Source of the DNA: Octopus vulgaris
Taxonomy: Eukaryota
Reading direction: 5' to 3'
Assembly: GCA_951406725.2 (NCBI GenBank)
Contig: OX597818.1
Coordinates: 106,020,001-106,084,000, forward strand
DNA length: 64,000 nucleotides
Each line of letters starts with the position of its first letter. Within the stretch, counting starts at the first letter, position 1. The notes under the pieces are model-generated. The model did not search any database. It was not told the origin of the DNA and saw nothing but the letters and a program-made list of their open reading frames with translations. The position numbers were made by a program, and so were the translations under genes. Positions 105 to 62,201 of this stretch are shown here, piece after piece.

Positions 105-876
105 CTCTTTTACTCTTTTACTCTTTTACTTGTTTCAGCCATCCGGCTGAGGCCATGCTGGGGCACCGCCCTTGTTGCTACCCTCTCTAAGTCCAGTTTG
201 CCGTGGCTGGCCACTGATCTAAGAGAGAGTTTGTAGCTGCTGCCCTTAGGTTACCTTCGTACCTTGCAGTGGGTTCATCTGGGATCCCGGAAAGCAGCTT
301 GTCTAGATGTTTTTTGAAAATGTCCACATCCGCATCATGTAGATCTCTTAGTTTTCTTGGCAGTTTGTTGAACAGCTGAGGGCCCCTGAACCCCAGGCTA
401 TTACAGTATCTGCTCCTTACCCTGGATGTGGAAGACGGGACCTTTGGCACCACACAGTGACGACCTGTACGGGGATTGGAACAGCTCTCAATTCCAAAAT
501 TTGGTGCTAGTCCCTCCAGGATTTTCCATATGTATATCACTGCATATCTCTCTCGTCTTCGTTCCAAGGAGTACAAATTGAGTTCCCTAAGCCTCTCCCA
601 ATAGTTCTTTTCTTTCATGGTGGAAATCCTCTTGGTGAAATGTCTTTGGATTGTCTCAAGCTCTGTGGTTAGTTTGACACTATGCGGTGACCACAGTTGG
701 GAGCAGTAGTCTAGGCGGCTTAGGACAAATGTCCTCCATAGTGTCAACATGGTCTCGCAGTCTCTTGTCCGGAATGTCCTCAGGATCCAGCCAGTGAGTC
801 GTCTGCACATTGTCGCCACCTTCGCGATGTGTGAAGAAAAAGATGCATCGTCACTCATGTCTATCCCCAGGTCCCG
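105..876 (-). mobile_element. 5'-truncated CR1-like (CR1/L2/Jockey group) LINE: RT C-terminus plus 3' tail
   Basis: Open frame [59 protein letters not shown]. The - strand tail is GGCGGTGCCCCAGCATGGCC..GAAACAAGTAAAAGAGTAAAAGAG. Same family as 44298-48817. Confidence 0.9.
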
Positions 877-4577
<3,701 letters not shown>

Positions 4578-4579
<2 letters not shown>

Positions 4580-4950
4580 GAAACGGTAATTATTTCTACG
4601 CCAGCTATGTTGTTGTTGTTTCTGTCTCATTTGGTCTAAAGTCGTATGACAACCAACGTTATATATGTTTTGTTTGTTCATTACCGTTTTCAATTTCGTT
4701 TTCGTCTCTTGTGTTTACATCCGTCTTGTGCGTTCACATTCCTGTCTTCTACCAAGAAATCTAATGCTTACAGCTTAGTTTTTTTTCTTGGGGCTGGCCG
4801 AGTTGGAGCAAATATCAGAATTGAACAGCCGAAATTTGCTATGATGGTTCGGTGTCTGACTGAAGATTGAAGGCTTCGAATGATTTGTCTGTGTTCCGTG
4901 TTCGTCCCTTCCTGTGTTTCACGTTCATTATATATAAAAACATTCATTCT
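4578..4950. repeat. CpG-rich ~370-bp island within the microsatellite, probable interspersed-repeat fragment (possibly a Penelope terminal repeat)
   Basis: Abrupt boundaries with (TA)n, high CpG, no convincing ORF. Family assignment is a guess. Confidence 0.35.
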
Positions 4951-6136
<1,186 letters not shown>

Positions 6137-6355
6137 GGCCCAGTGGTTAGGGCAGCGGACTTGCGGTCGGAGGATCGCGGTTTCGATTCCCAGACCGGGC
6201 GTTGTGTGTGTTTATTGAGCGAAAACACCTAAAAGCTCCACGAGGCTCCGGCAGGGGGTGGTGGTGATCCCTGCTGTACTCTTTCACCACTCTAAAGGCG
6301 GTGCTCCAGCATGGCCGCAGTCAAATGACTGGAACAAGTACAAAAAAAAAAAAAA
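6137..6355 (+). mobile_element. tRNA-derived SINE with CR1-like LINE-type 3' tail and poly(A)
   Basis: A box TGGCCCAGTGGTTAGG, B box GGTTTCGATTCC, tail GGCGGTGCTCCAGCATGGCC..GGAACAAGTAC(A)n. Head shared with 31696-31976. Confidence 0.85.
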
Positions 6356-8804
<2,449 letters not shown>

Positions 8805-10307
8805 TGTACAGGTGGAACTCACTGGATGCTGGATATATACCAGAAGACCTTCTGTCTGAGTCTGTTGTACCAGTTTTCAAAAAAGGAAACAAATCGCTTG
8901 CTGTGAATTACCGTCCAATCTGAGTGCTGAGATTGTGTATGACTCACTTCCTTTAGAGTCATAATATGCTGAACTCCAACCAGCATGGATTCCGTAATGG
9001 AAGGGATTGCCTGACGCAGCTACTGCATCATTTTGATGACATTTTGAGAGCCTTGGGAGAGGGCTCCAACACTGATGTCATCTACCTTGATTTCAGCAAG
9101 GCCTTTGACAGGGTTGATCATAAGATCCTTTTGAGAAAGCTGTCCAATATTGGTGTCACTGGAAAACTGCTGCAGTGGATCAAGCGCTTCCTGTCTAACA
9201 GAACCCAACATGTTGTAGTCGAAGGAGTCAAATCCAGCCCAGCCAAAGTCAGTAGTGGTGTCCCACAAGGCACTGTGTTGGGCCCACTTCTCTTCATCAT
9301 CTACATTAATGATATTACTGACACCATCAAACACAGTAACATCAGAACCTTCGCTGATGATTCCAAGCTCCAGAAGGTCATCAATGGCGTGGATGACCGA
9401 ATAAGCCTTCAGTCAGACCTACTGGCTGTTGTCCAATGGGTGGAAAAGAACAACATGTTGCTAAACGAAGACAAATTCGAACTGATCCACTTTGGAAGGG
9501 AGTACGCTCTGAAACTCCCGTACTCCCTTCCTTCTGGAGAAATACTCATGGCGTCTAACAACATCAGAGACTTGGGAGTAACAGTGGACAACAACATAAG
9601 CTGGGTTACACATATAAGCAGCAAAGTTGACATGGCCCGCAGAATGTGTTCCCGGATTCTCAGAACCTTCCAGTCGAGAGATTCCTACACCATTATCCTT
9701 CTCTTCTCTACTTTTGCCCGACCCCACCTTGAATACTGCTGTCCACGACACAAAATATTATGAGAAGTGAAGCTCCCCAAAGGTCAATCACAAAAAAGAT
9801 AGATGGCATGTCAGACCTCGACTACTGGGGTAGACTAGAGAAGCTGAAACTGTATTCACTCCAACGACGCCGTGAACGCTGCATTATCTGTATGATGTGG
9901 AAAATATTCCATCAGTACTGTCCGAATGATGTTGGCATCACCTTCAAAATACATCCAAGGCTTGGACCACGTGCCATCCGTCCACAACAAAAATCTAGAT
10001 CGCATCACATAACGACAATATGGCACAATTATTTCACCTCAATTGAACCCGCTCTCTTCAACATTACACCAGGACACGTCAAAACAGAAACTGACCACAC
10101 AAAATTCAAGAAGTCTATGGACAAATTCCTTCAAACAGTCCCGGACAAACCATCCACACCCGGATATGTCTCCGCAAACAATAACTCTCTGCTCGAATGG
10201 GCCTCGGTGCCCAAATCCTGAATTGAAAGACTTCGCCAGGTGGTGCTATTAAGTTAGACATGGCCTGGGCCAATACTGGCTGAAACCTTTCTAACTTATT
10301 CTAAGTT
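8805..10307 (+). mobile_element. 5'-truncated CR1-like LINE (second family), RT domain to 3' end, internally deleted
   Basis: [16 protein letters not shown]; QHGFR..CLTQLL..YLDFSKAFDRVDH..SGVPQGTVLGPLLF..FADD..RDLGV; after a break at ~9750, LYSLQRRRER..VPDKP. Confidence 0.92.
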
Positions 10308-10910
10308 ATATGTATGTATATATGTACATATATGTATGTATATATGTACATATATGTATGTATATATGTACATATATGTATGTATATATATATATATGTA
10401 TGTATGTATATATGTACATATATGTATGTATGTATATATGTACATATATGTATGTATATATATATATATGTATGTATGTATATATATATATATGTATGTA
10501 TGTATATATGTACATATATGTATGTATATATGTACATATATGTATGTATATATATATGTATATATATATGTATGTATGTATATATGTACATATATGTATG
10601 TATATATGTACATATATGTATGTATATATGTACATATATGTATGTATATATGTACATATATGTATGTATATATGTACATATATGTATGTATATATATATA
10701 TATATGTATGTATGTATATATGTACATATATGTATGTATGTATATATATATGTATGTATGTATATATATATATATGTATGTATGTATATATGTACATATA
10801 TGTATGTATATATATATATATATGTATATATATATGTATGTATGTATATACGTATGTGTATGTATATGTATATATATATGTATGTATGTATATACGTATA
10901 TGTATGTATG

Positions 10911-10943
<33 letters not shown>

Positions 10944-10958
10944 ATACGTATATGTATG

Positions 10959-10991
<33 letters not shown>

Positions 10992-11004
10992 ATACGTATA
11001 TATG

Positions 11005-11035
<31 letters not shown>

Positions 11036-11050
11036 ATACGTATATGTATG

Positions 11051-11081
<31 letters not shown>

Positions 11082-11359
11082 ATATGTATATATATATATG
11101 TATGTATATATGTATATATATATATGTATGTATATATGTATATATATATATGTATGTATATATGTATGTATATATGTATGTATATATGTATGTATATATA
11201 TATATATGTATGTATATATGTATGTATATATGTATGTATATATATATATATGTATGTATATATGTATGTATATATGTATGTATATATATATATGTATGTA
11301 TATATGTATGTATATATGTATGTATATATATATATGTATGTATATATGTATGTATATAT

Positions 11360-11400
<41 letters not shown>

Positions 11401-11460
11401 TATATATATGTATGTATATATGTATGTATATATATATATATATATATGTATGTATATATG

Positions 11461-11493
<33 letters not shown>
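10308..11493. repeat. TATG/TACA/TA compound microsatellite
   Basis: Direct reading. Confidence 0.95.
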
Positions 11494-11495
<2 letters not shown>

Positions 11496-11932
11496 AAACA
11501 AATCAAAATAGATGAACATCAATGGAATTTGTATCTTTGTGGACCAGTGCCGGTGGCACACAAGAAAATCATCCGAACGTGGCCGTAGCCAGTACCGCAT
11601 AGACTGGCCTCCGTGCTTTGGGGACGTAACAAACACCATCCGATCGTGGCCGTCCGCCAGCCTCATCTGGCACCTGTGTCGGTGGCACATAAAAACACCA
11701 TCCGAGCGTGGCCGTCTGCCAGCCTCGTCTGGCACCTGTGTCGGTGGCACATAAAATCACCCACTACACTCTCGGAGTGGTTGGCGTTAGGAAGGGCATC
11801 CAGCTGTAGAAACACTGCCAGATCTGACTGGCCTGGTGCAGCCTTCGGGCTCCCCAGACCCCAGTTGAACCGTCCAACCCATGCTAGCATGGAAAACGGA
11901 CGCTAAATGATGATGATGATGATGATGATGAT
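11494..11932 (+). mobile_element. 3' UTR of an RTE-clade LINE (5'-truncated copy) with ~63-bp internal tandem units and (TGA)n tail
   Basis: GGCGTTAGGAAGGGCATCCAGCTGTAGAAAC..CCATGCTAGCATGGAAA..(TGA)n matches the reverse complement of the 3' end of the RTE at 54277-55485. Confidence 0.85.
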
Positions 11933-11995
11933 ATGTATGTATATATGTATGTATATATGTATGTATATATATATATATGTATGTATATATGTATG

Positions 11996-12031
<36 letters not shown>

Positions 12032-12131
12032 TGTATGTATATATGTATATATATATATATATATGTATGTATATATGTATGTATATATGTATGTATATAT
12101 ATATATGTATGTATATATGTATGTATATATG

Positions 12132-12166
<35 letters not shown>

Positions 12167-12251
12167 GTATGTATATATGTATATATATATATATATGTAT
12201 GTATATATGTATGTATATATATATATGTATGTATATATGTATGTATATATG

Positions 12252-12290
<39 letters not shown>

Positions 12291-14212
12291 AATGTATGTA
12301 TGTATGTATATATATATGTGTATATGTATGTATATGTATATATGTATGCATATATATATGTGTATATGTATGTATATGTATATATGTATGCATATATATA
12401 TGTGTATATGTATGTATATGTATGTATGTATATATGTATGTCTGTATGTATGTATGTATATATATATATGTGTGTGTATATATGTATATATATATGTGTA
12501 TATATGTATATATATGTGTATATATGTATATATATGTGTATATATATGTGTATATATGTATATATATATATATGTGTATATATGTATATATATATATGTG
12601 TATATATATGTGTATATATGTATATATATATATGTGTATATATGTATATATATATATGTGTATATATGTGTATATATCTATGTGTATATATGTATATATA
12701 TCTATGTGTATATATGTGTATATATATATGTGTATATATGTGTATATATATATGTGTATATATGTGTATATATATATGTGTATATATGTATATATATATG
12801 TGTATATATGTATATATATATATGTGTATATATGTGTATATATATATGTGTATATATGTATATATATATGTGTCTATATGTATATATATATATGTGTCTA
12901 TATGTATATATATATATGTGTCTATATGTATATATATATATGTGTATATATGTATATATATATGTGTATATATGTATATATATATGTGTATATATGTATA
13001 TATATATATGTGTATATATGTATATATATATATGTGTATATATGTATATATATATGTGTATATATGTATATATATATATGTGTATATATGTATGTATATA
13101 TATGTGTATATATGTATGTATATATATGTGTATATATGTATGTATATATATATATATGTGTATATATGTGTGTATATATATATATGTGTATATATGTGTG
13201 TATATATATATATATGTGTATATATGTATGTATATATATATATGTATATATATATGTGTATATATGTATGTATATATATATATGTATATATATATATGTG
13301 TATATATGTATGTATATATATATATATGTGTATATATATATGTGTATATATGTATGTATGTATATATATATGTGTATATATGTATGTATATATATATATA
13401 TATGTATGTATATATATATATATGTGTATATATGTATATATATATATATATGTGTATATATGTATATATATATATATATGTGTATATATGTATGTATATA
13501 TATATATGTGTATATATGTATGTATATATATATATGTGTATATATGTATGTATATATATATATATATGTGTATATATGTATGTATATATATATATATATG
13601 TGTATATATGTATGTATATATGTATATATGTGTATATATGTATGTATATATATATATATATATGTGTATATATGTATGTATATATATGTGTATATATGTG
13701 TATATATGTATGTATATATATATATGTATATATGTGTATATATGTATGTATATATATATATATATATATGTGTATATATGTGTATATATATATGTGTATA
13801 TATGTATGTATATATATGTGTATATATGTATGTATATATATGTGTATATATGTATGTATATATATATATATGTGTATATATGTATGTATATATATATATA
13901 TGTGTATATATGTATGTATATATATATATGTGTATATATGTATGTATATATATATATGTGTATATATGTATGTATATATATATATGTGTATATATGTATG
14001 TATATATATATATATGTGTATATATGTATGTATATATATATATATGTGTATATATGTATGTATATATATATATATGTGTATATATGTATGTATATATATA
14101 TATATATATGTGTATATATGTATGTATATATATATATGTGTATATATGTATGTATATATATATGTGTATATATGTATGTATATATATATATGTGTATATG
14201 TGTGTATATATG

Positions 14213-14256
<44 letters not shown>

Positions 14257-14287
14257 GTGTGTGTGTGTGTGTGTATATACATATGTA
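11933..14287. repeat. TATG/TGTG/TA compound microsatellite
   Basis: Direct reading. Confidence 0.95.
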
Positions 14288-14581
14288 TATTGCTTTCGAT
14301 ACCCAGAAAATAAGATGAAGACCAGCCTGGTGAAATATGTCTGAGAATTAAAAGAAAAAGAAGCCCGACCTTTCAACGTGTCATGGAGCATTCTAGGTAG
14401 AGTGGCACCATACAAGCACGGTGCGCATAGGAGGAATTTCAAGTGCGATCTTTGTTTGCTAGAGAAATATTCTATTTTATTCCAAGACATTAATTCTTTG
14501 AATCAAAGAAGCGAACTCTTGAACTCATGCAGACATGCAACCAAATTCAAAATGTCAAATATCAATATCCCATATGGATAG
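14288..14581 (+). mobile_element. Penelope-like element fragment, C-terminal part of the GIY-YIG endonuclease region
   Basis: [58 protein letters not shown] matches the Penelope C-terminal pattern (CxLCxxEK..LNxRxE..CRH); one in-frame stop. Confidence 0.8.
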
Positions 14582-16410: not shown

Positions 16411-16452
16411 TCTGACATTATTCTGTATGTATTTTCTTTTCTTTCTTTCCAG
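16411..16452 (+). promoter_or_regulatory. Candidate 3' splice site (branch point, pyrimidine tract, CAG) preceding the ZNF coding exon
   Basis: TCTGAC at 16411, then ATTTTCTTTTCTTTCTTTCCAG; the exon would start at 16453. Confidence 0.65.
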
Positions 16453-16909
16453 ATTGCCTTTCAAAAAGGATTTTTGCTTGAAGTCTAGGACATCAACCTC
16501 ATTCTATTTCCTGTCATGATATGGCAAATTCAGGCGAAGATTGTAGCAGGATGTTTGATAGGTATTTTACCATGATGATACGATATCTTCCTGATTGATA
16601 GACAGTCTTCCACACCATGGTGTAAATGTAGGATATTTGAGTGGAAAACGGCAAACTTCTGCCTCCCACCATTTTCTTTCTTTCTGCCTTCTTGCAAAAA
16701 CAGTATGCAATAGCTGATAATTACTGAGTCATTCTCTCCATTCTATTACTTTATTGTTAGATTTGGAATAAAAACCTTCAGTTCTATACAGGTAGCTTTC
16801 AAGCATTGCCTTAAACAAGGCATCTTTTCCTTAGAAAATTAAATTTTAATCAAAAGGTTACCTATCTCTACTTCATCCTATCCTTCTCTGTATTTCTCTT
16901 TCTTCCAAA

Positions 16910-19900
16910 ATGGGTAAATCGTCATTTGAGTGCAATTTTTGTGACAAAGAATTCACCAATAGATCTAGATTAGATTCTCACCAGAGAATTCACACAGGAG
17001 AACGACCACATATTTGTAATCAGTGTAATCGGCCATTTCGCACAGCCTCTGATTTGAAAGTACATTTCCGCACTCATACTGGAGAGAAGCCTTATAAATG
17101 TAACTTCTGTGATCAAGCATTTGCAGTTTCACGTAATCTCACTGCACACATACGTATTCATACAGGTGAGAGACCTTTTATCTGTTCATTATGTCACAAG
17201 GCTTTCACACAGAAATCTGCACTCAATGTTCACTCCAGGATTCATACTGGTGATAAACCTTTCCAGTGCATCTTTTGTGCCAAACAGTTTGCATACTCTA
17301 ACAGCTTGAAGGTGCACTTACGTGATCATACACGTGTTGAGAATGGCAACGACATTGACACCAATAACAGCAGCAACAATAGTAGTGATATTCATTCTGT
17401 AAGTAATAACACTAACAATATTATTAGTAACACAAATCTTTCTGGTAGAGGCAGACGTAAAAAAAATAATCGTCGTAAAGCAGGTAGAGCCCCTAAAAAC
17501 CAGGAGACCATCAAGCAATCAACTGTATTGGGATTCTCCGATTATACCCAACCAGAGGAAGAAGCTCTCTATACTTGTTCTATTTGTTCCCAAGGCTTTG
17601 ACCAAATTGAGCTTCTAGCCGAGCATTGGAAGTCTCACAATGAAGACACTGATTCCGAGAAGAGTGATGACGACAATCCTTCATCAAGAACTGCTCAGAA
17701 AGATGTTAATGGTGTTGGTAAAGTACTGTCTAAGACAAAAGATAATTTAAAAGAGGAAAAGAATCAAGAAAACTTGGTTGCACCTAAATTCAACAAAGCT
17801 GTTGATGACAATGATACTTATCAAACGATTGACAAAGATAACTCTTCACATGCAGAGTTTACAGAGCCCTCTTCCATTTACTGTAACTTAAGAGAAAGCA
17901 TTGCAAAATCACTTGGTGCAATTCAGATTAGCAATGGGCAACGTCAGACAAGATCTAGAAGTAAAGAGCAGTCTGATGATCCTTCAGTTTCAACGGTAGC
18001 ACCTTCAAAACATTCTAAGTCATCAAAAAGTTGTCACTCTTCCAAATCACCTTCTGTTAGTGCATCCAATACTACGTTTGGGAGTAGATCCAAACGGCTG
18101 CTTTCAAAAAATCCAGTTGGCAGTCAGGCTAGTCAGGCAACTAAAAATATCAGTCCAACTGTTTCAGTTGCTAATAGCTCATCTAATGTAAGCCTTTATG
18201 GGAATGAATCTTTCAATTCTGTAAAAACTGAAGAAAATATGAAATGTGTTTCTGAGAACACGCACTCTGTTGATAAAGGAAATACATCCCAAGATAATAA
18301 ATGGGAAAGTTACCAGACCACTACTCTGATAGATGAAGGAGAAAACCAAAGTGCTGTTATTACAGAATCATTGGTCAATAGTGTCTCGGTGAAAAATGAG
18401 CCATCTTTTCTGCCTTCTAGTGATACCTTTTCCAAGGAAATTTCTCAAACATCAGACAATGCAATGTCTGAGACAAATCTTGGCAAAGAAATCACAAAAT
18501 CATCATCATGCCTTGTTGAAAATAAATTAGATATTGCTTCTCTTTTTGACCAAGATATTTACACATCTGCTCTCAATGATGCTCTGAAGTCTCTTCCATC
18601 AACTGCTTCATTATCCAATTCCTTCCTGAACAATGACAACAACAATCACAGCAATAACAATAGTAGTGATGAAAATAAAGACCCCCTTAACTCTTCAGGA
18701 GACATGACTGACTCTTTTATAAAGAAGGAAACAGAAGGTACTGTTTTCTTAAATCTACCCCAATCCTCTCAGCAGGATTTGGTGGCTTCTTCCTCCATGC
18801 CATCTATAATGTCAATGATGGATCAGTCCCAAATTGATATGTTGTCCAACTCCACTGCTGCTGATACATCATCAAATATAGCTGAAAAATTTAAAACATA
18901 CAAGTGTACACTATGTGGCATGATATTATGTGAGGCTGAACTTTTCGTTGAACATTTAGGGAAACATTCCCGAAATGCTAATCCATTCATATGCACAGAG
19001 TGTGGAAGACAATGCACTCGTCAGTATGATTTGAAAGTGCACACTAGAACACATACAGGCGAGAGACCATACAAATGTAGATTTTGTAAGCGTGGGTTTG
19101 CTATTTCTCGCAATCTTGTGGCACATCTGCGTATTCACACTGGGGAGCGACCTTATCAGTGCAATACCTGCAATAAGTCATTCACTCAACAAAGTGCACT
19201 ACGGACACACAGCCGCATTCACACTGGTGAAAAACCATATGTTTGTAAAAGCTGTGGCAAAACATTTTCTTATTCGTATGTCCTAAACTCACATGTACGT
19301 GATAACAAACTTTATCGCTGCAACTATTGCCAGGGAATGTATATTGGGTCTTGTGCTATTAACCTGCACATGAAGTCGCATGATGAAGACAAACAGCTAG
19401 CAGAAAATGCTGCTAGTATCGAGGAACTTTCTTTTAGTACAGATGATACTGAGATTCTGAATGAAAATGTAGTTAATGAACTGGACAGAAAGCTGTTAAG
19501 CTCTACTGGAACACCACACCTAAAGAATTCCAAGTCAAAAAAAAAGAGGAAAGGAAAATTAAAATTGATTTCTCAGACTATTGATGTTACTGAATCTATA
19601 GACTGCCAGATTACCAACATAGACAATCCAGATCTTTGGCCAAATACAGATATGCTTGTTAAAATGGAAAATAATGCTGAAGAATTCATAAGAAATGGTG
19701 AAAATTTTGGTAATGTAGATCAATCTATATTTGGAAAATCAGGTCTACCAGACCAATTGGGTTGTGATTCTCAGATTTCAAAAAATGGAGATGATCTGCA
19801 AGCACTTTATGTGGGGAATTTAGAAATGCAAAACTACAGTCAGAACTCTGAAAATGTTGCCCCAAAGAGTTCCTCTCAAGAGGGTTTTGGCGGAAAATTA

Positions 19901-22900
19901 AGTTCCTATTTTAAATATGCTAAACACTTGTCTTTACAACATGAAGCCAAAATATCAAGAAAAATAAAAGCTAGACAAAAAGCTCATATCTGCTGGTATT
20001 GTCACCGAGACTTTGGAAAATTCAAGGACCTGTGTAAACACGTGAGGAAACACTGGAAAAGCCGTCTTTACAGCTGTTCTCATTGCAAGAGGAAGTTTAC
20101 TCGTCAAACTGCTTGCAAAATGCATAAAATGATACATGGTAAGAAATATTTCAAATGTCAATATTGTAGTAAAAGTTTTGCATTCTCATGCAGCTTGATG
20201 TCTCATTTGAAAGCAGTCCACACACACCGGTGCCATGTAAAAAGCCATAATTGTCAGCATTGTTTTCAGTCATTCAGTCGTTATTACCTCCTTTCAGCAC
20301 ACATAAAAAAGCAACACTTAGGAAAATCGTCTGAGAAACTAGGAGATACATTTATAAAATCTAACAAATCATTAATCCCACAGCAGCCTTATGAAAACAA
20401 TACTGATATTCTAGGTATTGATGAGCCTCATTTACCATCTAAGGTGAGTCCAACTTCTTCTGTGCAAAATAATACATCTTGCCATCAATTGAATAATGAT
20501 CAGATTGTTATTTATCTTGAAGAAGAAGGTGATTCCAAAATGGAAGATCTTGAAAATGAGATCAATGATAATATATTATCTTCCAATTCTGGTGAAGGAT
20601 CTGCCATTGATATCAGTGCAGCATCTCTAGATGACCCTGATGCTGATGATGAAGAGGAAAATCTGTCTTGTAGCTTTTGTGAGCGCACTTTCAGCCAGCG
20701 CCATCAGCTTTTGGTACATCTTCGAATTCATACTGGTGAAAAGCCATATAAATGTACTTGGTGTCATAAAGCATTTCGTGTGTCGAATGATCTTAATGTT
20801 CATACGCGTATTCACACAGGCCAACGTCCTTATAGGTGTAAAGTGTGTGATAAAACATTTACAGTCTTACGTAACTTGTCAACCCACATGAGGGTACATA
20901 CAGGTGAAAAACCTTATCAGTGCAATATATGTACTAGATGTTTCTCTCAGAAATCAGCTCTTACGGTCCATATGCGTATCCATACTGGATCAAAACCTTT
21001 CAGATGTGGTATGTGTCCACAAAGTTTTGCTCATTCATCAAGTTTACGACAACATAAGCAGCGTCATGTCACTGGCGAGCTTGAGGAGGAGGTTTTCCGA
21101 TGTACTGTTTGTGACAAGACTTTCCCTTGCTTCAATACTCTTAGCAGTCACGTTGAAGAACACCTTCAAGAAAACTTAGAGTCAAATAGTAAAAATAAAC
21201 CTGGGTTGAGCAAAACTGCAATATCACCATCAGGAGTAGAGATTAATCAGGAATCTGTTTTGCAGGAAGAGACATACACACCATCTCTAAAAGAAACCAA
21301 CTATGCAATTAAAGATACTGCTAAAAAACGTGGCAAAAGAAAAACAAAAAAACGCAACCGTTCTAATTTATCTGATGGTTTCGATCAACAACAGCTTAAT
21401 CAAGTAAACCAAGTCATCAACAAAATGAAGCTTGAGGAAGAAGCCATGCTTTGCATCAAAGATGAATCCAATTCCTCAAGTATGATTGATTCTCTTAAAT
21501 TCAAAGCCTTGAATGATGATCCTGCAGATCCATCACCGTCGTCATCAGTTGGAACATTGGAAAAATCTTTTCGCACCTTGAATAACCAAAAGAAGAAAGA
21601 GAAAATTCCTTGTGTCAGTACTTCTCAAAACATGGCTTATAAATCTGAGCCTAGAGATTTCTCTAGCCAGCAACAGCATTTATTAGAATCTGAAAATTTG
21701 AACAAGGCTGACTTTGATGATGTTGTTGGCTTTGCTGAAAAGAGTGATGATAATGTTTCAGACACTGCCTCACAAATTTACTCTTGTAATGACTGTGAGA
21801 AAACATTTAATCAGAAATGCCTTTTATTAGCACATAGCAGGATCCATACAGGAGAACGTCCTTATAATTGCCATGTCTGCAGCAAGACATTTCGCATTCC
21901 TAATGATTTGAAAGTCCATTTGCGGAGTCATACAGGAGAAAGGCCTTACAAATGTCAAATCTGCAATCGTGGTTTTTCGATTTCTCGAAATTTAACAGCT
22001 CATTTGAGGGTTCACACTGGAGAAAGACCATTTAAGTGTGAATTCTGCAGCAAATGTTTCACTCAGAAATCAGCTCTAACAGTTCATATAAGAACCCATA
22101 CAGGTGTTAAGCCATTCAAATGTGAAGTCTGTGGTCAATCTTTTGCCTATTCTTACAGTCTCAATGTTCACAGGAAACAACAACATAATTTAAATAGCAA
22201 TAGCAAACCGTCCAGTGGCCGGCTTTACAAGTGCAATGATTGTGACCAAACATTCACACATGGCTATCTTCTTGGAATCCATCGAAGAACTCACAAGCAG
22301 CGCAGTAAAGCCAAGCAACAAAACTCAATTAATCAAGTTCCTCATGCCAAGATGCAAAGTTCTGAGGATCAGCACTTAAATTCACGTTTGAAATCAGATC
22401 CTTTCTTGTCTCTTTCACTTGTTAATAACAATCTCAATGAACTTGAAATTGACCAGATTACTCTCAGTCAGAAAGATTCTCTGAACCTTCATGAAAAATC
22501 ACTTGAAGAATTAGACCAGAATAATATGTTCATTAAAAGCAATACTAGTGATTTTCAAGCTCATAATGCAGATTTAGAAGATTTTGAAAAACCTCACCAG
22601 TCATTACGTACCAAATTTGGAATCTCAGAGAAGCTCAACAGAAAAACCAAAAGGCAAAGACGCTCAAAGTATTCATTACAATCTACAGAAAATGATGGAA
22701 ACAAAAATGGTGAAAATGAATGTGTTGAACTATCCAATACTGAAATAGATTTTGATGAAATAGAAGCAACAGCTGCACGGCTAGAGAATCTGTTATCAGA
22801 TGAACCACTCTCCATTGATGAGGCTGCTTGCAAAGTGTGTGGTAAAACATTTAGCCAAAGAGCTCATTTAGCTGCTCATTATCGCATCCATACTGGTGAG

Positions 22901-24130
22901 AGACCTTACAAGTGTCGCTTGTGTTTTAAGGCTTTCCGTGTATGTAGTGACCTTACAGTGCATCTGCGTACTCACACAGGTGAGAGACCTTACAAATGCC
23001 AATACTGCCCAAAAGCCTTTTCAATTTCTCGAAATCTTACTGCACATTTACGTACACATACTGGTGAGAGACCATTTGCATGTGGACAATGCAGCAAACG
23101 ATTCACTCAGAAGTCTGCTTTAACAGTTCATATGCGTACACATACAGGTGTACGACCATATGTATGTCAAGTTTGTAAAATAACCTTCACATATTCACAT
23201 AGTCTGAAAATGCATATCAAGCATCATCACTCCAGAGCAAGTATGTCTGATGCACCTGAGGCTTCGCCGGCATTCCAATTTGATGGCACTACTGACTATT
23301 TATTTCCAAATGCTCCTATATCTGACGGCAGTTTAATACTTGAATCTCCTGAAAAGAAATCCAATTCCAGCTTAACAGATAATCTGAATAAATTTGGGGA
23401 TGACACAGTGGCAGAAAGTGCAATGGATGCTAAATGCAGCATCAGTCAAAATATTTTTAAAGATACAATTGACAGTGAATATAATGATAGTAACATATTC
23501 TTAGATGATATGTTCTCTTCAGCTAACAGTTCTGCTAATTTCCTGACCAATAGCCAGCAGCAACAAAATTCTGCTACTTCATCTTTTAGTGAACAAACTG
23601 CTGATAATGGCAACTTTGACAACTTAACTGAGATGAATAGCAAGTGCCAAATTTGTGACAAAACATTTAACCAAAAGTCTCGTCTTGTTGCACATTTGCG
23701 TACACACAGTGAGGAGAGGCCATATCAATGTAACCTGTGCCCCAAGACATTTCGTGTAGCCAGCAACTTGTCTATACACAAGCGTGTCCACACTGGTGAA
23801 AGACCATATAAATGTGACATTTGTAGCAAATCATTCACAATCTCTCGTAATCTTTTCACTCACATGCGTACCCATACTGGCGAAAGACCATTTTCATGTG
23901 AACACTGCAGTAAAAGGTTCACACAGAAGTCAGCCTTGACTGTCCACATGCGAACTCATACTGGGGATACCCCATATGAGTGTGATGCTTGTGGGGAAAA
24001 GTTTACATACTCCAGCAGTTTTATGCTCCACAAAAAGCACAACAAAGCTATTAATTGCACCTATTGTGGAGACGTCCTTTTGGGCAAGTGTGCCTTCCGC
24101 TCTCATCTGCAAAAACACATTACTGCTTAA
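16910..24130 (+). CDS. Multi-cluster C2H2 zinc-finger protein (2406 aa, ~39 fingers in 7 clusters), uninterrupted ORF
   Basis: 7.2-kb open frame, ATG in CAAAATGG context, many CxxC-x12-HxxxH fingers with TGE(K/R)P(Y/F) linkers, S/N/D-rich spacers with K/R patches. No KRAB/BTB/SCAN-type N-terminal domain visible. Confidence 0.97.
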
Positions 24131-25778
24131 GCATTCTCAGATCAAGAGTGAAAATAAACCAGCTTACCGCCTTTGAACATGGAATCTCACTTTTTTTTTT
24201 TAAATGTGTGTATGCATGTATGTTTTGTATGCGTGTTTCTCTTTAAAAGGTTGTCTAATCTTATTCAGTTAACGGAATCAAAGAAAAAGAAAGAAAAATA
24301 GTATATAAAAAAGGAAAAAAAAAACAAATATATAAGACATGATTGAGAAGCTTTGTTGGTATTACAAAAATAGAGGAAAATATTTGAAATTATTTAAAAA
24401 GTGTTTTACATGTTTCCATCCCATTCCATATAAATAATACATGTTGTGTTCTTCATTGTTTTTTTTTTTTCCATTCTCTGTGTTTCAGGGAGCTATTTAT
24501 AAAACCTTAGATGAAAATCAGGAACATTTCTTTAACCCTTTGTTAGATTACTTAGATACCTTGTAATCATACATAGACTTAATATTAACTTGAAAATCAC
24601 TCATGGTTTCCTTATTATTTTTGATTGCAAGTACGCATTCAAAACATTCATTGTTAGATTCTTGTTTGTGTTTTTTTTTTTTGTTTTTTTATGTGATGTT
24701 GGACAATATTTTTATTTTTCATCACATGTTTTTAAAACAGACAAAACATTTTTCACATCTTCACTTATTTTTGGCTTGTTTGTTTCCTCAGGCATCACTT
24801 ATTATTCATTAAATTTTTTTTCTTTCAGTTTCTTTACTCAATGTCCATCTCACCTTTAACTACTTCGCCTCATAATTTAATTGGTTCATTCTCTCGATAA
24901 TATTCATTAGATTATAGGAAGAAAAAAAACCTTTAATAAACCTTAGAATTAATTCCTAACAAATGAAAACAAAAAGAGGGAAAGCGTGTTCTTTCTTTTC
25001 TTCATGTTTTTGTCCATGCAAAGAATTGCATTAATTTAAAGCACCATTTATTACACATTTTGTAGAATGTGCATGTGTGTGTATGTAAGCATATGTATGT
25101 ATATAAACATGTATGTATGTGTGTGTGTGTATATATATATATATGAACAAACAGATAATTATAATTTCAAAAATGATAGCCCTTGTGTATATTTTCTGCT
25201 CTTCCCATGGTTGTTCATACTTTTTCCTAACTTATATACAATTTTTCAAACTGATCAAAACACTATTTTTACACACAACACGACTACAGTTTATTAATTG
25301 ACATTAATTAATTAGTTTTTTTCTTTTTTTTTTTTCAAATATTTTATCTTAGTTTTTACATACAAGTGCACCTTTTTTAAAAAAAAACAAAATAATATAT
25401 TTCATTTTTTTTTATATTATCAACAAAGTTTGAATGATTATAAAATCCCTCTCCTCTTAAAAATAAATTAAAACATTTTCAGTTGGGCAATAAAATTTTC
25501 AAAAAGAAAAGAATGACATATATATATAAAGTAAAATCTTATTTATATTTTAGTCTGTTAAATCTTTTTGCATGGTGTTATCCTTGCAATACTACTTTTT
25601 TTTTGCAAAAATATAAACAAAAAAGTTTCGTGAGATATATATTAAAATAATAATTTAAACAAAAAAGAACAAAAAAATATAGTGATGCCAAATCCTTTAA
25701 AAAAGCAGTCATCAACCAAAGTTACCAAGGAGATAGTAGAACATTCATCAGTAACATAAGCAACCATAATAATTATAA

Positions 25779-30070: not shown

Positions 30071-30770
30071 TATATATATGTATATATATATGTACGTATA
30101 TGAATATAAATATGTATGTATATGAATATATGTATGTATATGAATATATATATGTATACGAATGTATGTATATGAATATATATATGTATACGAATGTATG
30201 TATATGAATATATATATGTATACGAATGTATATATATTTATATATGTATGTATATATATTTATATATGTATGTATATGTATTTATATATATTTATATATG
30301 TATATATATTTATGTATGTATGTATATATTTATGTATGTATGTATATATTTATGTATGTATGTATATATATATGTTTGTATGTACGTATGTATGTATGTA
30401 CGTATATATATTATGTATGTACGTATATGTATGTATGTACGTATATGTATGTATGTACATATATGTATGTATGTACGTATATATGTGTATGTATGTACAT
30501 ATGTGTATGTATGTACATATGTGTATGTATGTACATATGTGTATGTATGTACATATGTGTATGTATGTACATATGTGTATGTATGTACATATGTGTATGT
30601 ATGTACATATGTGTATGTATGTATGCATATATGTATGTATGCATGCATATATGTATGTATATATATGTATGCATATATGTATATATATATGTATGTATAT
30701 ATATATATGTATATATATGTATGTATGTATATGTATGTATGTATATATGTATGTGTATATATATATATGT
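30071..30770. repeat. TATG-type microsatellite including an 18-bp GTATGTATGTACATATGT array
   Basis: Direct reading. Confidence 0.9.
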
Positions 30771-30912
30771 ATCATCATCATCATTTAGTGTCCGTTCTCC
30801 ATGCTAGCATGGGTTGGACGGTTCAACTGGGGTCTGTGAAGCTGGAAGGCTTCATCAGGCCCAGTCAGATCTGGCAGTGTTTCTACGGCTGGATGCCCTT
30901 CCTAACGCCAAC
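30771..30912 (-). mobile_element. Short RTE LINE 3' tail
   Basis: (CAT)n then CCATGCTAGCATGGGTTGGACGG..GGATGCCCTTCCTAACGCCAAC. Confidence 0.85.
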
Positions 30913-31324
30913 ATATGTATGTGTATATATATATATGTATGTATATATGTATGTATGTGTATATGTATATATGTATGTATGTGTATATGTATATATGTAT
31001 GTATGTGTATATATGTATGTGTATATGTATGTATATATATGTATGTGTATATGTATGTATATATATATATGTAAATATCTATGTATGTAGTGGTTGTCTA
31101 TTCCTTATGCAGAGTTTGACCAACACCTGTCCCTACTCTTTAGCACCCTCAGTGCATCTGAAGTAGCTTTTTAAACCAGACAATGTTTTGAAAAGACACC
31201 CACGTAGATTGCACATGTGATTTGGACTACCATGTACTGCATATAAGTTCTGATCTTTGTGGATTTTAAAATGTCTTTTGAGCCCTCCATTAGATTTGCA
31301 AATATAGTATATACTGCATTTTCA

Positions 31325-42027: not shown

Positions 42028-42479
42028 ACTATGTAGGAACAAGTGACTATGTAGGAAAATGATATTGCAAATATTTGAGCTAGCTGTGTGGACCCGTTAC
42101 ACAGCTGGTGATTTTGTCATAATTCAAATTTCACTGTAAACATTCTGTCAAGATTTTTAAACAATTTACCTCTTGTTTTGCTTGCTTCAAGATGAGTGCC
42201 TCTACCTCTTTCACAATTGAGTGGTTTCGTCATTAAGTGAATGTTTTAATGACTAAAATATTCATACTTAAAACTGTTTTTATTCTTTTATATAATTATT
42301 TAAAACAAAGATACAAGGTAAGTAAAACCAATAGGAACGGGCGTTGTGTGATTAAGGAGTTCACTTTGCACCCACAAGTTTTGGGTACATGACGTTCGTA
42401 AAGGGTTTCACATGAGTAATGGAGCGATGTCAGTATACATGCACGGTACACAGCAATAAAGGTCACGATTTGACAGCCA

Positions 42480-43430
42480 TCATGTATGTACAATATATAT
42501 ATAGACATACATATGCTTATATATGTATGTATGTAAGTATATATATATGTGTATGTATGTATATATACGTATGTGTATGCGTGTATGTATGTATATATAT
42601 GTATGTGTATGTATGTATGTATATATACGTATGTGTACGCGTGTATGTATGTATATACGTATATGTGTACGCGTGTATGTATATATATATACGTATATGT
42701 GTACGCGTGTATGTATATATATACGTATATGTGTACGTATGTATGTATGTATATGTGTACGTATGTATGTATATATATGTATATGTGTACGTATGTATGT
42801 ATATATATGTATATGTGTACGTATGTATGTATATATGTACATATGTATGTATATATATGTATATATGTACATATGTATGTATATATATGTATATGTGTAC
42901 GTATGTATATGTATATGTGTACGTATGTATGTATATATGTACATATGTATGTATATATGTACATATGTATGTATATATATGTACGTATGTATATATGTAT
43001 GTATATGTAAGTATATGTATATGCATGTATGTATGTATATGCATGTATATATATGTGTGTGTATGTATGGATGGATGGATACATGAATATATATGTGCAT
43101 GTATATATATATATATATATATGTGCGCATGCATGTATATATATGTGCGTATGCATGTATGTATGTATGTATATATGTGCATGTATATGTATGTATATAT
43201 ATATATGTGTGTATGTATGTATGCATATCTATGTGTATATGTATGTATGCATATCTATGTGTATATGTATGTATATATGTGTGTATGTATGTATATATGT
43301 GTGTATGTACGTATATATGTGTTTATGTATATATATATATGTTTGTATATATATGCGTCTATATATATGTGTGTGTATGTATATATGTATATTTATGTGT
43401 GTGTGTATATATATATATATATTGTATCAT
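42480..43430. repeat. TATG/TACG compound microsatellite
   Basis: Direct reading. Confidence 0.9.
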
Positions 43431-44297: not shown

Positions 44298-47200
44298 TTA
44301 AAATGTTTTAGCTTGAAGGCCGCGGCCATGCTGGGGCACCACCGCTGAATGAGCTACACTAATATGTGAATCCACCTCTGATAGGTGGCACTTGATCAAC
44401 AAGGGAGTTCGATGCTGCTGCCCGCATCTGCATCTCCTGTCGTGAGGTAGGTTCATCTGGGACTCCTGACAAGAAGAGATCCAGTTTAGTTTTAAAGAAA
44501 CCCACATCCACACCATGTAAGTCTCTCAGGCATTTAGGGAGGATGTTAAAGAGCTGTGGTCCTCTGAAACCCAAGCTGTTGCAGTATCTGGACCTGTATT
44601 TTGATGGTGATGTTGGAATCTTTGGCACCATGCAGTGGCGCCCCGTTCTGCGGTTGGGGTAACTTTGAATGCCAAGATTTTCCAGATGTATATCACCGCA
44701 TATCTCTCCCGCCTCCGCTCTAGGGAGAAGAGGTTTAATACTTTCAGTCTTTCCCAGTAGCTGATATTTTCTTTGTGTAGCTTCTCTGAATTGCTTCGAG
44801 TTCTGCTGTTAGTTTTATATTGTGTGATGACCATAGTTGGGAGCAGTAGTCCAAGTGGCTGAGGACAAATGTTTTCCATAGGACCATCAGTGTCTCCTTC
44901 TCTCTTGTTCTGAAAGTTCGGAGAATCCATCCAGCTAGCCGTCTGCATTTTATCACCAGATTAGTACTATGCACTTGGAAAGATGCATCATTGCTCATGT
45001 CAATGCCCAGGTCACGCACTGATTTTGACTCAGGGATTGCAATTCTTCCTGGGCCAGTGTATCCAGTCTGCACGTTGTTTACCTTTGTGTGCCAGTAGCG
45101 CAGGGCCTGGAACTTACCTGCATTAAACTGCATGTTGTTGTCCTCAGCCCACCTGTATATTGTGTCCAGCTCCTGTTGCAGATGCACAATATTTTCAGGG
45201 TTTTGTATTGTGTGGGAGACTTTTGTGTCATCTGCATAGCTAGCAAGGGTGGTCATCGTAGCAACTGAAGGCATGTCTGAAAGGGCCACTATGAACATCA
45301 GTGGCCCCAAGACAGTGCCCTGTGGGACACCGCTTGTTATTTGTGTTTCCTTGGAGGTGGCTCCATTGCTCACAACTGCCTGTTTTCTGTCTTTTAGGAA
45401 GTTGTGCAGCCACTCTCCAAGTTTTCCGCCTATGCCGAGACCACGCAGTTTGTGACAGATCATACCATGGTCGACTTTATCAAAGGCTTTTGCAAAGTCG
45501 AGATATATTACAACCACATTTGTGCCATTTAGTAGCTGTTTCAACACCCAGTCATAGTGTTGCAGGAGCTGTGTTAGGCAGCTTCTACCTGGTCGAAATC
45601 CATGCTGGGTGTCAGACAGCAAGTCATTTTCTTCAAGGAACATGATTAGTTTCCATGACTTTGCTGATGTGTGAGGTCAGAGAGATAGGCTTATCATTTT
45701 TAGCATCTGCTCTGCTTCCTCCCTTATGGATAGGGCATATTATCTCTTCTTTCAATTTGACTGGGAGCTTACCACTTGCAAGAAAGCTCTGAAAAAGAAT
45801 CTGTAGTGGTTTTGCAAGGGCTCGTTTGCACAATTTGAGAAGGATCGCTGGAAATCCATCAGGTCCAGCAGCTGAGTTTATATCAATCTCATCTATGGTT
45901 AGTGTGATATCATCGTCAATGTTGATGTACTCAATTTTTGCCTCTTTAGCTACAGGTAAAGTGGCAAAAAATTCTTCTGGTTTGTTTACTTGCTTGTGTC
46001 CTAGAGGTGTAGTGAACACACTTTGGAACTGTTCATTCAGTATTTCACTTATCCTCATGAGATTTCCTGAGGGAACCATCTCTTTGGCAAACTTAAAGAA
46101 GGTTTTAGGGTTTGACTTGATGTTTTCTATTACCCAAGCTTCTTTATCTGATCTCTCTTTTTCATGCATCAGCAGACTTTTCTCAATTTCCATTAGCATT
46201 CTCTTGAGGCGAGGCTTCCCACCACTTTTGGTGTGCTTGCTCAGGTGGTTCACAATCCTTGTCTGTCATCTCATAAGAATCTTCCTTTCCCTAGGGATCC
46301 TGTTTTTGTGTGTGCTGGCCCTGTACACTGGGACATATTTGTCATATATGGCTTGTATTCTGGACATGAAATGTTTGTTTCATGTCAATGTCTGGTGTTC
46401 AAAGACATTTAGGCCAATCCTGTTTGAGGATCTCTTTCACAATCAACTTTCAATTTGGTTAATGAAAGTTTAGTTTGGAGAGATTGTGGATGCTTCGCAT
46501 AGACTGTGTGTCTGCAGGGGCTTTTGGTCCATACATAGACAGCTCTATTATATTGTGATCCGATACCAATGTCAGCATCACTTTAACATTATGGATAATG
46601 TCCATATTGTTTGTGAAGCAGAGATCCAGTATATCATTTGCCTTGGTTGTTTGCAGCACAATTTGCTCCATGAAAGAGGCATTTGTGAGGTGGAGCAGGG
46701 ACTCTGATGTAATCTCCAGGGATACAGGCATCCAGCAACAGGACCTCCGTAATGCCATGATGGACCGTGAAGTCTGGCGTAGCATGGTAAATTCCATTGT
46801 CTCGACCACGGTCGAACAATGATGATGAGGGACTCTGCCTGTGCTTGCTGATGGTGGGTCATCCCTGGAAGCATCTGCCCCCACCCCCCGGCCATTCCAC
46901 ATTGGGGAAGTTAAAGTCACCCATGAAGAATACACTGTTGTGGTGTTCCAGTTTGGTGAGAACTTCTCCTATTTTTGTTAGGCAGTCTTCAAACATGCTA
47001 GTGTGATTTGGGGCATCTGGTGGGCGATATGTAGTACATATGACAAAATTCAGTTGTCTTATGTGTACAATTTGAGTGTCACACACTGAGATTGAATATG
47101 ACAACAGGACTTGGGGCGTGAGGTCATCTCGGATGTACACTGTAACTCCACCATGACTCCTCCCTTTTATATCTGAGCATATGGCAACATATTACAGTAT

Positions 47201-48817
47201 GTTTAATTCTGCATCCTATATATCAGGTCCAAGATGTGTTTCTATGAGTGCCATGCATAGAGCTTGATTGCATGCCGCAAGGTCTTTCAGGAATGAGATT
47301 TTCCTTTTACAGTTGCCATGCAACAGTCCTCCTACATTTAGTAGATATATTTTTGTGACATGTGTGTTGGTGTTTGTGGTGGCCATCCTGCATCTGTTGG
47401 TGGTGGTAGGTATAGTTTCAGCTTTGTGTTTGTAGCCAAGTCAGCTTCTGGACAATTTTTTGTGCCATGCGCAAAAAAGATTGCTGTTCAGCTGCTGCCC
47501 TTCTCACATCTGGATGAAACTGGCCATTTGTTGGGCCATGGAGTATCCTTTTTGGATCATGCAATACATCTGCATATTGTCTTCTGGGAGTAGTTGGTGC
47601 ACCATTTTTCCTTCTTTGGTATCTTTCTTTTTCTTTTTGTTCTCTTCGTGGAAAGGATTGTTGTCTTGGGCCCATGCGGTTTTGGCAGGGCTTCTGATGT
47701 GCAAAACGACAGTTTGCACCATCGTTGCCATGCCAGCAGTTTCCTTGCAGGTAAAATTTGCAGATGCTCCTGCTTTTGCCCTTGAAACTCCTGTAGCTCT
47801 TGCTGGAGCTCTTCTGTTTTTTGTCTGAACAGTTTTTGTTGTGTTGTTTTTCTTTTTCTTTTCTTTTACCTCTTACTTTTCATTGCCTTCAGCAGCTTTT
47901 GCTCTGTTGGTTTTAAGATGCTTTTGTTTTTCGGCCATCACACCTCTTTAGTCTTCAGGCGTGTTGGGGGCTGGACAAGTGCCATTGTTTCCCTTGGTTG
48001 CAGGTCTCTCAGTTGTGTTTTTGGTTTTGCTCTTCTGAGGGACTGTTGAATCCTGGATGCTTTCTCCATCCTTTTTGTCATCCCTGGTGCAGTCACCTCC
48101 CAAGTGTGTCCATATGTTATCTAATTAGAGCATATGAACGGAGGAATTTGCGTTTTTTCCACTGTATCTGAGCGGTGGTCCTGGAGAAATCATTACTTTT
48201 AAGTGCTGCTGCAATGATGTTGTTTGGGGAGTCCCCTTCAGCAATCTTCCAGGCATGGACAAACAATTGCAATTCTTTTGCAGACCAGTTCCATGACACC
48301 TTTGCTTGGGATACAGTGAGAGAGTGAAATAGAGGAACAGAGAGAGGAGAGATAAGGAGATTGACCTGAGAGGGAGGGGAGAGAAGAGAAAAAAGCTGAA
48401 GGAGCGAAAGGGGGTGGCAGATCAGCCGGGAGGAAGAGAGAGAGAGAGACAAGGGGATTGACCTGAGAGGAGAGAGTGGCAGATCAGCAGAAGGAGGGAG
48501 GGAGAGAGAGCGAGATAGAGGTGTGGTAGAGAGAAAGAAGTAAAGGAACAGAGAGAGAGGAAGAGAGAGATAAGGGGATTGACCTGAGCGGGAGCAGAGA
48601 GAGAAGAGATATGGACTTAGAAATTTTAATATTTCTATTTTTGAAAACCAGTGGATGTATTCCACTGAATTTAGGTAAATAATCCTTCGAACAGACGGTT
48701 AGTAGCGACACCTGCTGCATTCAGCTGCTCTGCATTGATAAGGGGCAAATACCCTGAAACTAGTCTGCAGATGCCTGACCAGCAAGGGGAAGCAGCTGAC
48801 CTCCCCTGTTCGAAGGT
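44298..48817 (-). mobile_element. Near full-length but decayed CR1-like LINE (5' UTR, CCCH-finger ORF1, APE plus RT ORF2, 3' tail)
   Basis: ORF1 CKFYLQGNCWHGNDGANCRFAH (~47695-47765); APE GGVTVYIR..YRPPD..MGDFNFP; RT QHGFRPGRSCLTQLL..YLDFAKAFDKVDH..SGVPQGTVLGP..YADD; multiple frameshifts. Confidence 0.93.
46707..46827 (+). mobile_element. 121-bp 5'-truncated RTE-type LINE tail nested in the CR1-like LINE
   Basis: DVISRDTGIQQQDLRNAMMDREVWRSMV..* then (TGA)n; 10-bp TSD AGGGACTCTG at 46697-46706 and 46828-46837. Confidence 0.88.
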
Positions 48818-50450
<1,633 letters not shown>

Positions 50451-60231: not shown

Positions 60232-60489
60232 TACATAAGTGTATATATACATATATACATATATATAAGTATATATATAAAAATATACATACATATAAGG
60301 TTACAGATAATTAATTATCTATACTGGAATATACATATACATCCACATCAATGGGTACATATACAATTTTCATTACATTTCCAATATTATTATTATTATT
60401 ATAATATTAACATTAGATTATGTGCATTCTGCTATATTGGATAACTGATATTCCATAGTGGGTTACCCTCATAACCCCTATCTTACTTT

Positions 60490-62201
<1,712 letters not shown>

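Follow-up and report, generated by a model that had tools for sequence, protein, structure and literature searches.

A zinc finger gene with six spaced cassettes

The 64,000-nucleotide (nt) stretch of Octopus vulgaris DNA analysed here (GenBank assembly GCA_951406725.2, contig OX597818.1, positions 106,020,001 to 106,084,000), hereafter the window, contains a single stop-free, intronless open reading frame (ORF) at 16910-24130 that encodes a Krüppel-type C2H2 zinc finger protein of 2,406 amino acids (aa), counted from the first Met. All coordinates are positions within the window and refer to the + strand unless stated. The protein carries 39 C2H2-type units, 37 complete and 2 lacking the last His, and has the C-x2-C-x12-H-x3/4-H fingers, TGEKP-type linkers and Pfam zf-C2H2 matches of the Krüppel type. 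A Pfam scan of the ORF returned nine families at E<=0.01, every one of them zinc finger (PF00096 at 437 bits, PF13465 at 543 bits), with no KRAB, SCAN, BTB, ZAD, SET/PR or homeodomain match in the 2,406-aa protein. Regular-expression scans found neither the NuRD motifs RRKQxxP and RKxxxPxK in three orthologues nor CtBP-type PxD/E-L-S/T or conserved PxVxL motifs in the protein, and no other C2H2 fingers occur in the six frames of the 64-kb window.

A first-pass annotation of the window had described six copies of one five-finger cassette, separated by S/N/D-rich spacers of roughly 100-400 aa and accompanied by a degenerate seventh cluster at 19985-20317. Its places and helix patterns proved right, with refinements to fingers F1 and F5 and to the repeat unit, which is 5+1 fingers. 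The protein consists of six F1-F5 cassettes, a degenerate four-finger cluster, which we locate at 19991-20317, and five spaced sixth fingers, found after five of the six cassettes (Table 1). TGEKP-type linkers are kept within the cassettes. The gaps preceding the clusters measure 422, 203, 117, 207, 178 and 138 aa, and the non-finger sequence is rich in S (15.6%), N (10.4%), K (8.2%), D (7.8%) and E (7.7%).

Contact positions have outlasted the finger scaffold

The recognition helices of F2 to F5 recur in the same order in all six cassettes. Read from -1 to +6, the F2 helices of cassettes 1-6 are TASDLKV, RQYDLKV, VSNDLNV, IPNDLKV, VCSDLTV and VASNLSI, while the F4 helices are QKSALNV, QQSALRT and then QKSALTV four times. 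An invariant core, present in 6/6 cassettes, is made up of R+2 and N+3 of F3 and Q-1, S+2 and A+3 of F4, and is joined in five of the six by D+3 of F2. F5 has S+1 in every cassette and Y-1 and S+3 in 5/6. In contrast, the F1 helices are poorly shared (0.07-0.40 identity per contact position), so the earlier description of the same ordered helices in every cassette stands for F2-F5 and fails for F1.

As a statistic we used the mean pairwise identity of same-index fingers across cassettes, taking helix positions -1, +2, +3 and +6 as contacts and eight variable positions as scaffold. Contact identity is 0.54 (0.62 for F2-F5) against 0.19 for the scaffold; aligning the cassettes in this way therefore bears out the first-pass expectation that helix positions -1, 2, 3 and 6 would be more conserved than the others. 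None of 5,000 finger-order shuffles reached the contact value, and 2 of 5,000 reached the scaffold value, a faint index signal such as a genuine duplication would leave. Of the 20 contact columns, five are invariant, versus none of 40 scaffold columns (Mann-Whitney p = 7e-5, with columns treated as independent). The signal is strongest at +3, -1 and +2; conservation extends to +1 (0.60 in F2-F5), and +5 and +8 are free (0.21 and 0.19). Fingers of different index are only 0.12 identical at their contact positions, and the pattern is therefore not that of a generic C2H2 consensus.

An old duplication kept in orthologues

Between cassettes, four-fold degenerate sites match at 70 of 212 positions (0.33), compared with a random expectation of 0.334. 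Scaffold and codons alike differ widely between copies, as the first reading of the locus had suggested. Because the four-fold sites are saturated, the duplication must be old and not homogenised, which speaks against a recent duplication or gene conversion.

In a full-length search, three orthologue clusters stood out against the unrelated background arrays: that of O. bimaculoides LOC106883442 (97% identity), into whose cluster an O. sinensis protein, one Logan protein and the window's own protein also fall; an Argonauta hians orthologue (73% identity); and an ENA protein, P0003 (43% local identity, 52% in global alignment). The results of the full-length and cassette searches concern the matches listed, the best 120, under a ranking that favours giant arrays, and the cassette query covered proteins of 61-244 aa, not those of 245-1,322 aa. 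The searches made gave one orthologue per species, and the 6+1 layout is kept in O. bimaculoides, O. sinensis, Argonauta and P0003. An O. sinensis isoform, X2 (P0121), ends at aa 2002 within cassette 5 and is left with four full cassettes, which may reflect real alternative splicing or a prediction artefact. The distance of P0003 would suit a squid or cuttlefish; octopuses and squids separated roughly 270 million years ago.

In a tree of the 18 cassettes of three orthologues, each cassette position is set apart from the rest by a single branch (5 changes in all, the minimum; none of 200 shuffles as low). Only three of the six position groups are strongly supported, and the tree does not fix the order of duplication. 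Since the cassettes group by position across orthologues, all six predate the split from P0003; with the saturation of four-fold sites, this upholds the old intragenic duplication that had been proposed. Contacts are 0.96 and 0.87 identical to those of Argonauta and P0003, against 0.86 and 0.53 for the scaffold. The accompanying proposal of selection for a single specificity fares less evenly: contacts are indeed kept beyond the scaffold in the orthologues, but conserved private variants contradict a strict equivalence of the cassettes.

All seven family members carry the full helix signature (14/14). The cassette profile, run against the 61-244-aa proteins, and the full-length search together gave 237 non-family proteins, the best of which reached 8/14 among the matches listed, and neither a single-cassette ancestor nor a non-cephalopod relative was found among them. 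One match labelled ZNF236-like (P0115), a label that may be wrong, has unrelated helices. Spacer motifs searched against 1.84 billion representatives retrieved P0002 and two weak low-complexity matches, the degenerate cluster found a relative in none of 91 candidates among shorter proteins, and searches of the ESM Atlas and PDB returned generic C2H2 matches only. Among the matches listed, the family so far appears only in cephalopods and as P0003. Six orthologue accessions occur in none of the papers searched, which were the main texts of open papers, and the gene may sit unnamed in family-wide tables. Judged by its sequence, this is an old, selected architecture in an uncharacterised gene.

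Comparison with other large C2H2 proteins

We assembled a comparison set of 126 proteins of at least 1,000 aa, 97 of which have at least three clusters of at least four fingers. These comprise 8 rows of the present family (one a duplicate) and 89 controls, which are search matches, mostly vertebrate and probably with fused models, and include no other cephalopod protein. With the degenerate cluster included, family members show contact identities of 0.33-0.40 versus scaffold identities of 0.15-0.18, a ratio of 2.1-2.6, compared with 1.3 in the best control. In 85 of the 89 controls, scaffold identity between aligned clusters equals or exceeds contact identity.

The first-pass annotation had also set the protein apart from the homogenised arrays typical of cephalopods. 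Homogenised it is not, having clusters of 4-6 fingers, scaffold identities of 0.12-0.19 and saturated codons, and cross-mapping reads of other genes show, by eye, a uniform PYHCDICGKSF scaffold. The architecture is nevertheless less unusual than was implied, given that BCL11B, ZEB, SALL and ZNF775 have two to four arrays.

Repeated cassettes as such are not rare. P0063, a protein of 2,023 aa from Discoglossus pictus, has five spaced cassettes of 4-5 fingers with shared ordered helices (contact 0.56, scaffold 0.42) and is apparently an independent, younger frog case of the same design. P0004, P0054 and P0050 (owls) and P0042 (Eurosta solidaginis) have 10-16 spaced four-finger cassettes in which the signature is reversed, the scaffold being kept while the contacts diversified; these models may be fused tandem genes.

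Transcript and features of the locus

Overlapping contigs of run X1 tile 16453-24315 with zero differences from the window. Contigs of both X1 and X9 start at 16453, the base after an AG, and X1 carries 307 further letters that do not align to the window; X15 aligns from 16451, not 16453. This suggests a spliced transcript whose coding exon starts at 16453, with the reservation that X1, X9 and X15 are only guessed to be RNA and that a repeat mask ends at 16450. The RNA run X24, whose reads have fixed differences from the window, gives low-depth reads on the 5' untranslated region (UTR) and one spacer. No single RNA piece covers the whole ORF in the aligned runs, and no excess of A>G changes was seen in the runs aligned to the window. 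The listed read joints lack canonical ends, their sides are short, and they resemble the product of cross-mapping among the finger repeats. The upstream ATG frames in the 5' UTR raise the possibility of translational control.

Several segments outside the core cassettes deserve mention (Table 1). The spacer motif at aa 532-565 is a candidate cofactor-binding segment. The degenerate cluster, aligned by eye, probably derives from a cassette through the loss of F3-F4. An odd module is common to cassettes 2 and 6 (19244-19381 and 23981-24118): an F5 without its last His is followed directly by a sixth finger with a G-x-C-A helix. Its presence in both may point to a higher-order duplication or to a pair of fingers that binds protein.

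Table 1. Features of the zinc finger locus, in window positions; each cassette row begins at the first cysteine of its F1
Feature	Coordinates	Strand	Protein position	Basis or remark
AG splice acceptor preceded by polypyrimidine tract; large coding exon likely begins at 16453	16451..16452	+		sequence; contig starts
Likely 5' UTR	16453..16909	+		eight upstream ATG frames of only 1-25 codons, all out of frame with main ORF
Cassette 1, F1-F5	16931..17329	+	aa 8-140	finger scan
Isolated acidic sixth finger after cassette 1 (QIELLAE)	17576..17638	+		kept in orthologues
Acidic-hydrophobic spacer motif	18503..18604	+	aa 532-565	nearly invariant in three orthologues; no outside relative
Cassette 2: F1 acidic and degenerate, F2-F4 intact, F5 lacking last His; sixth finger closely attached	18905..19381	+	from aa 666	
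Basic-aromatic motif before degenerate cluster	19883..19981	+	aa 992-1024	nearly invariant in orthologues
Degenerate four-finger cluster without TGEKP linkers	19991..20317	+	aa 1028-1136	
Cassette 3 (F1-F5 to 21067) and sixth finger	20669..21163	+	from aa 1254	
Cassette 4 (F1-F5 to 22186) and sixth finger	21785..22294	+	from aa 1626	least constrained cassette
Cassette 5, F1-F5, without sixth finger	22829..23230	+	from aa 1974	
Cassette 6: F1-F4, F5 without last His, attached sixth finger	23645..24118	+	from aa 2246	sixth finger resembles that of cassette 2

Predicted DNA motif and AT microsatellites

In the C2H2 recognition code, Q-1 and N+3 read A, A+3 reads T and D+3 reads C. Applied to F4 (Q/A), F3 (N) and F2 (D), this code gives a predicted core site of 5'-nTA nAn nCn-3'. 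F4, F2 and F1 of cassette 5 resemble the engineered modules QKSSLIA, SPADLTR and QLAHLRA, which are assigned to ATA, ACA and AGA, respectively (PMC7317221), and the ATA assignment of QKSSLIA also appears in PMC9705829. F3-F5 have no Arg at -1, +3 or +6, and for this reason single cassettes would be weak, low-information binders.

Alternating tracts cover 17,987 of the window's 64,000 bases (28%), and the core TAnAnnC occurs 70.7 times per kb within them versus 9.8 per kb elsewhere. The predicted F4-F3-F2 site ATA-TAT-ACA (ATATATACA) is the commonest core match in the window (551 of 1,721), and (AT)n-AC repeats match the predicted core in phase. Four of 12 letter permutations, however, fit the tracts equally well, and the core ranks 5th of 120 spaced patterns, 12 of which exceed 20 per kb; the microsatellite fit is therefore treated as a lead and not counted as evidence.

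Followed as a lead, it would make this a coleoid-specific protein that reads the abundant (AT)n/(AT)n-AC microsatellites with a single chain of valence up to six, coating and cross-linking these repeats into a chromatin-organising element. We think this unlikely. If true, it would be the first trans-acting factor for a large and unexplained part of coleoid genomes; (AT)n makes up more than 10% of the Doryteuthis genome (PMC9068888).

Tracts of (TA)n, (TA)n(TG) and (TA)n(CA) that run for kilobases lie at 1000-14300, 30100-31100, 42300-43400, 48700-50500 and 60400-62300. Broken LINE-like retrotransposon pieces were also found, at 8957-10221 (+), at 44744-47879 (-) and in the 3' part of an ORF at 187-2364 (-), with RVT_1 matches at 8957-9760 and 44747-45676 and a weak CCCH finger at 47421-47879; all of these pieces have very long tracts of the (TA)n type next to them.

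A proposed multivalent DNA reader and its alternatives

The reading that we favour, to which we give about an even chance, is that a single chain of this protein reads DNA multivalently, several of its cassettes each engaging a copy of one short motif predicted to be AT-rich. Each cassette would read approximately 9-15 bp through its F2-F4(F5) core. The spacers, of 117-422 aa and likely disordered, would place no constraint on the spacing or orientation of the sites that four to six cassettes could bind. With spacers of this kind and six copies, avidity on clustered sites is the simplest use: weak cassettes would gain avidity there, giving selectivity for motif density and not for one long site. 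Such avidity within one chain would equal what SALL proteins obtain from tetramers. Cofactor recruitment would fall to the conserved spacer motifs and to the fingers that are acidic and non-canonical. Beyond this the protein might also bridge separate DNA segments, which is a possibility and not a finding.

Several observations weigh against this reading in its simple form. Cassette 3 keeps 20/20 contacts in both distant orthologues, including private helix variants, which fits related but distinct specificities, and cassette 4 has lost contacts in both (15/20 and 13/20, in different fingers). In cassettes 2 and 6 the last His of F5 is missing; F1 differs between cassettes, and so does position +6 of F5. 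F1 of cassette 2 is acidic, with a broken, non-canonical linker. On these grounds cassettes 2, 4 and 6 are partly impaired as far as their residues tell, and the six equivalent binders of the first-pass annotation, with F1 unshared and private variants kept, were too strong a claim. The predicted motif depends on a recognition code of low reliability for I, V, Y and R+2. By a combined excess score, the family (0.26) is equalled by two homogenised frog proteins, and two more come close.

The main rival explanation is that each cassette serves by itself as a DNA-binding domain, one of several alternatives that share a core but differ in their flanks; they would widen the set of targets and not be engaged together. 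We regard this as possible, though clearly the less probable account. It draws on the conservation of cassette-private residues across orthologues and on human precedent: ZNF775, cited with ZNF721 as a model, has three homologous separated arrays whose predicted sites share a common core with different extensions, and duplicated arrays in human proteins tend to diverge in predicted specificity (PMC13541613), a tendency that also counts against shared use of one motif. Set against it are the five F3-F4 contact columns that are invariant over six cassettes despite synonymous saturation, and the four exact copies of the F4 helix, which would be difficult to account for if copy number brought no gain.

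It is improbable, in our judgement, that the conserved helix face instead binds RNA or a repeated protein partner, the protein then being a multivalent scaffold. C2H2 fingers can bind RNA and protein (PMC11602157), F3-F5 lack the Arg typical of strong DNA readers and have I, V or Y at -1, position +1 is conserved as well, and several fingers are acidic or atypical. Yet the strongest signal falls at +3, -1 and +2 with +5 and +8 free, Q-1, N+3, D+3 and A+3 are classical base contacts, and TGEKP linkers are kept within cassettes. The absence of any shared function, whether through generic consensus, recent duplication or gene conversion, or assembly or annotation fusion, is very improbable and largely refuted: large database C2H2 models are often fusions, many full-length-search matches carry several KRAB or RT domains and one O. 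sinensis RefSeq isoform stops early, but different-index contacts agree poorly, four-fold sites are saturated, the ORF is single, stop-free and intronless, the X1 contigs tile it without differences and the same layout is found in four named species and P0003.

Cephalopods have thousands of C2H2 genes, nearly all of them uncharacterised. Contacts kept while scaffold and codons were randomised six times pick out, for this one, a function of reading related DNA words with many modules. The gene, whose six cassettes measure 140 aa each, lends itself to testing whether motif density can be recognised through avidity.

Relation to known systems

The protein shares two features of multi-array homotypic C2H2 proteins (BCL11, ZEB, SALL and ZNF775), namely homologous arrays on long low-complexity linkers and, F1 excepted, conserved base contacts. 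By the features tested it appears to belong to none of the BCL11, ZEB, SALL and ZNF512B families. Like BCL11A and BCL11B, it has separated homotypic arrays with conserved base contacts; the two arrays of BCL11B share 7/8 contact residues, are joined by an S/T/D/E-rich linker of about 300 aa and bind clustered short motifs at free spacing and orientation (PMC13225276). BCL11 proteins, however, have two arrays of 2-3 fingers that read a G/C motif through Arg/Lys, whereas the octopus protein has six five-finger cassettes with a predicted AT-rich core, and there is no sign of orthology.

SALL1-4 similarly carry 3-4 separated clusters with shared contact residues, which bind AT-rich DNA at micromolar affinity through Asn-adenine contacts (PMC9672407), and SALL proteins need tetramers for DNA binding (bioRxiv 2025.10.27.684836). 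Their clusters have two fingers, they gain avidity as tetramers and they have a NuRD motif, whereas the octopus protein holds its valence in one chain and lacks RRKQxxP/RKxxxPxK. ZEB1 and ZEB2 also have clusters on a long linker and bind two half-sites of variable spacing and orientation (PMC8304685), but they have only two clusters, together with a homeodomain and CtBP sites, neither of which was found in the octopus protein. ZNF512B, with dispersed fingers, offers a model for the bridging idea, as the chromatin aggregation seen on its overexpression scales with finger number (PMC11602157); it has eight fingers, oligomerises, carries a NuRD motif and has no five-finger cassettes.

Internal array duplications are found in 140 human proteins, among them ZNF775 and ZNF721, which resemble the octopus protein in having three homologous arrays, those of ZNF775 separated and conserved to marsupials (PMC13541613). 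These duplications were found by overall similarity and their specificity is diverging, whereas in the octopus protein the scaffold is randomised, the contacts remain and the copies number six. The coleoid C2H2 expansions (PMC12513265, PMC9068888) are likewise cephalopod multi-finger genes, but they expanded by gene duplication, and no mention of the cassettes or of this gene was found in the excerpted main text of PMC12513265. The multi-array C2H2 design is itself known; what is new here is a five-finger module in six copies whose contact code has outlasted its scaffold unusually cleanly, extending the 2-4-array design of BCL11, ZEB and SALL to six five-finger modules per chain.

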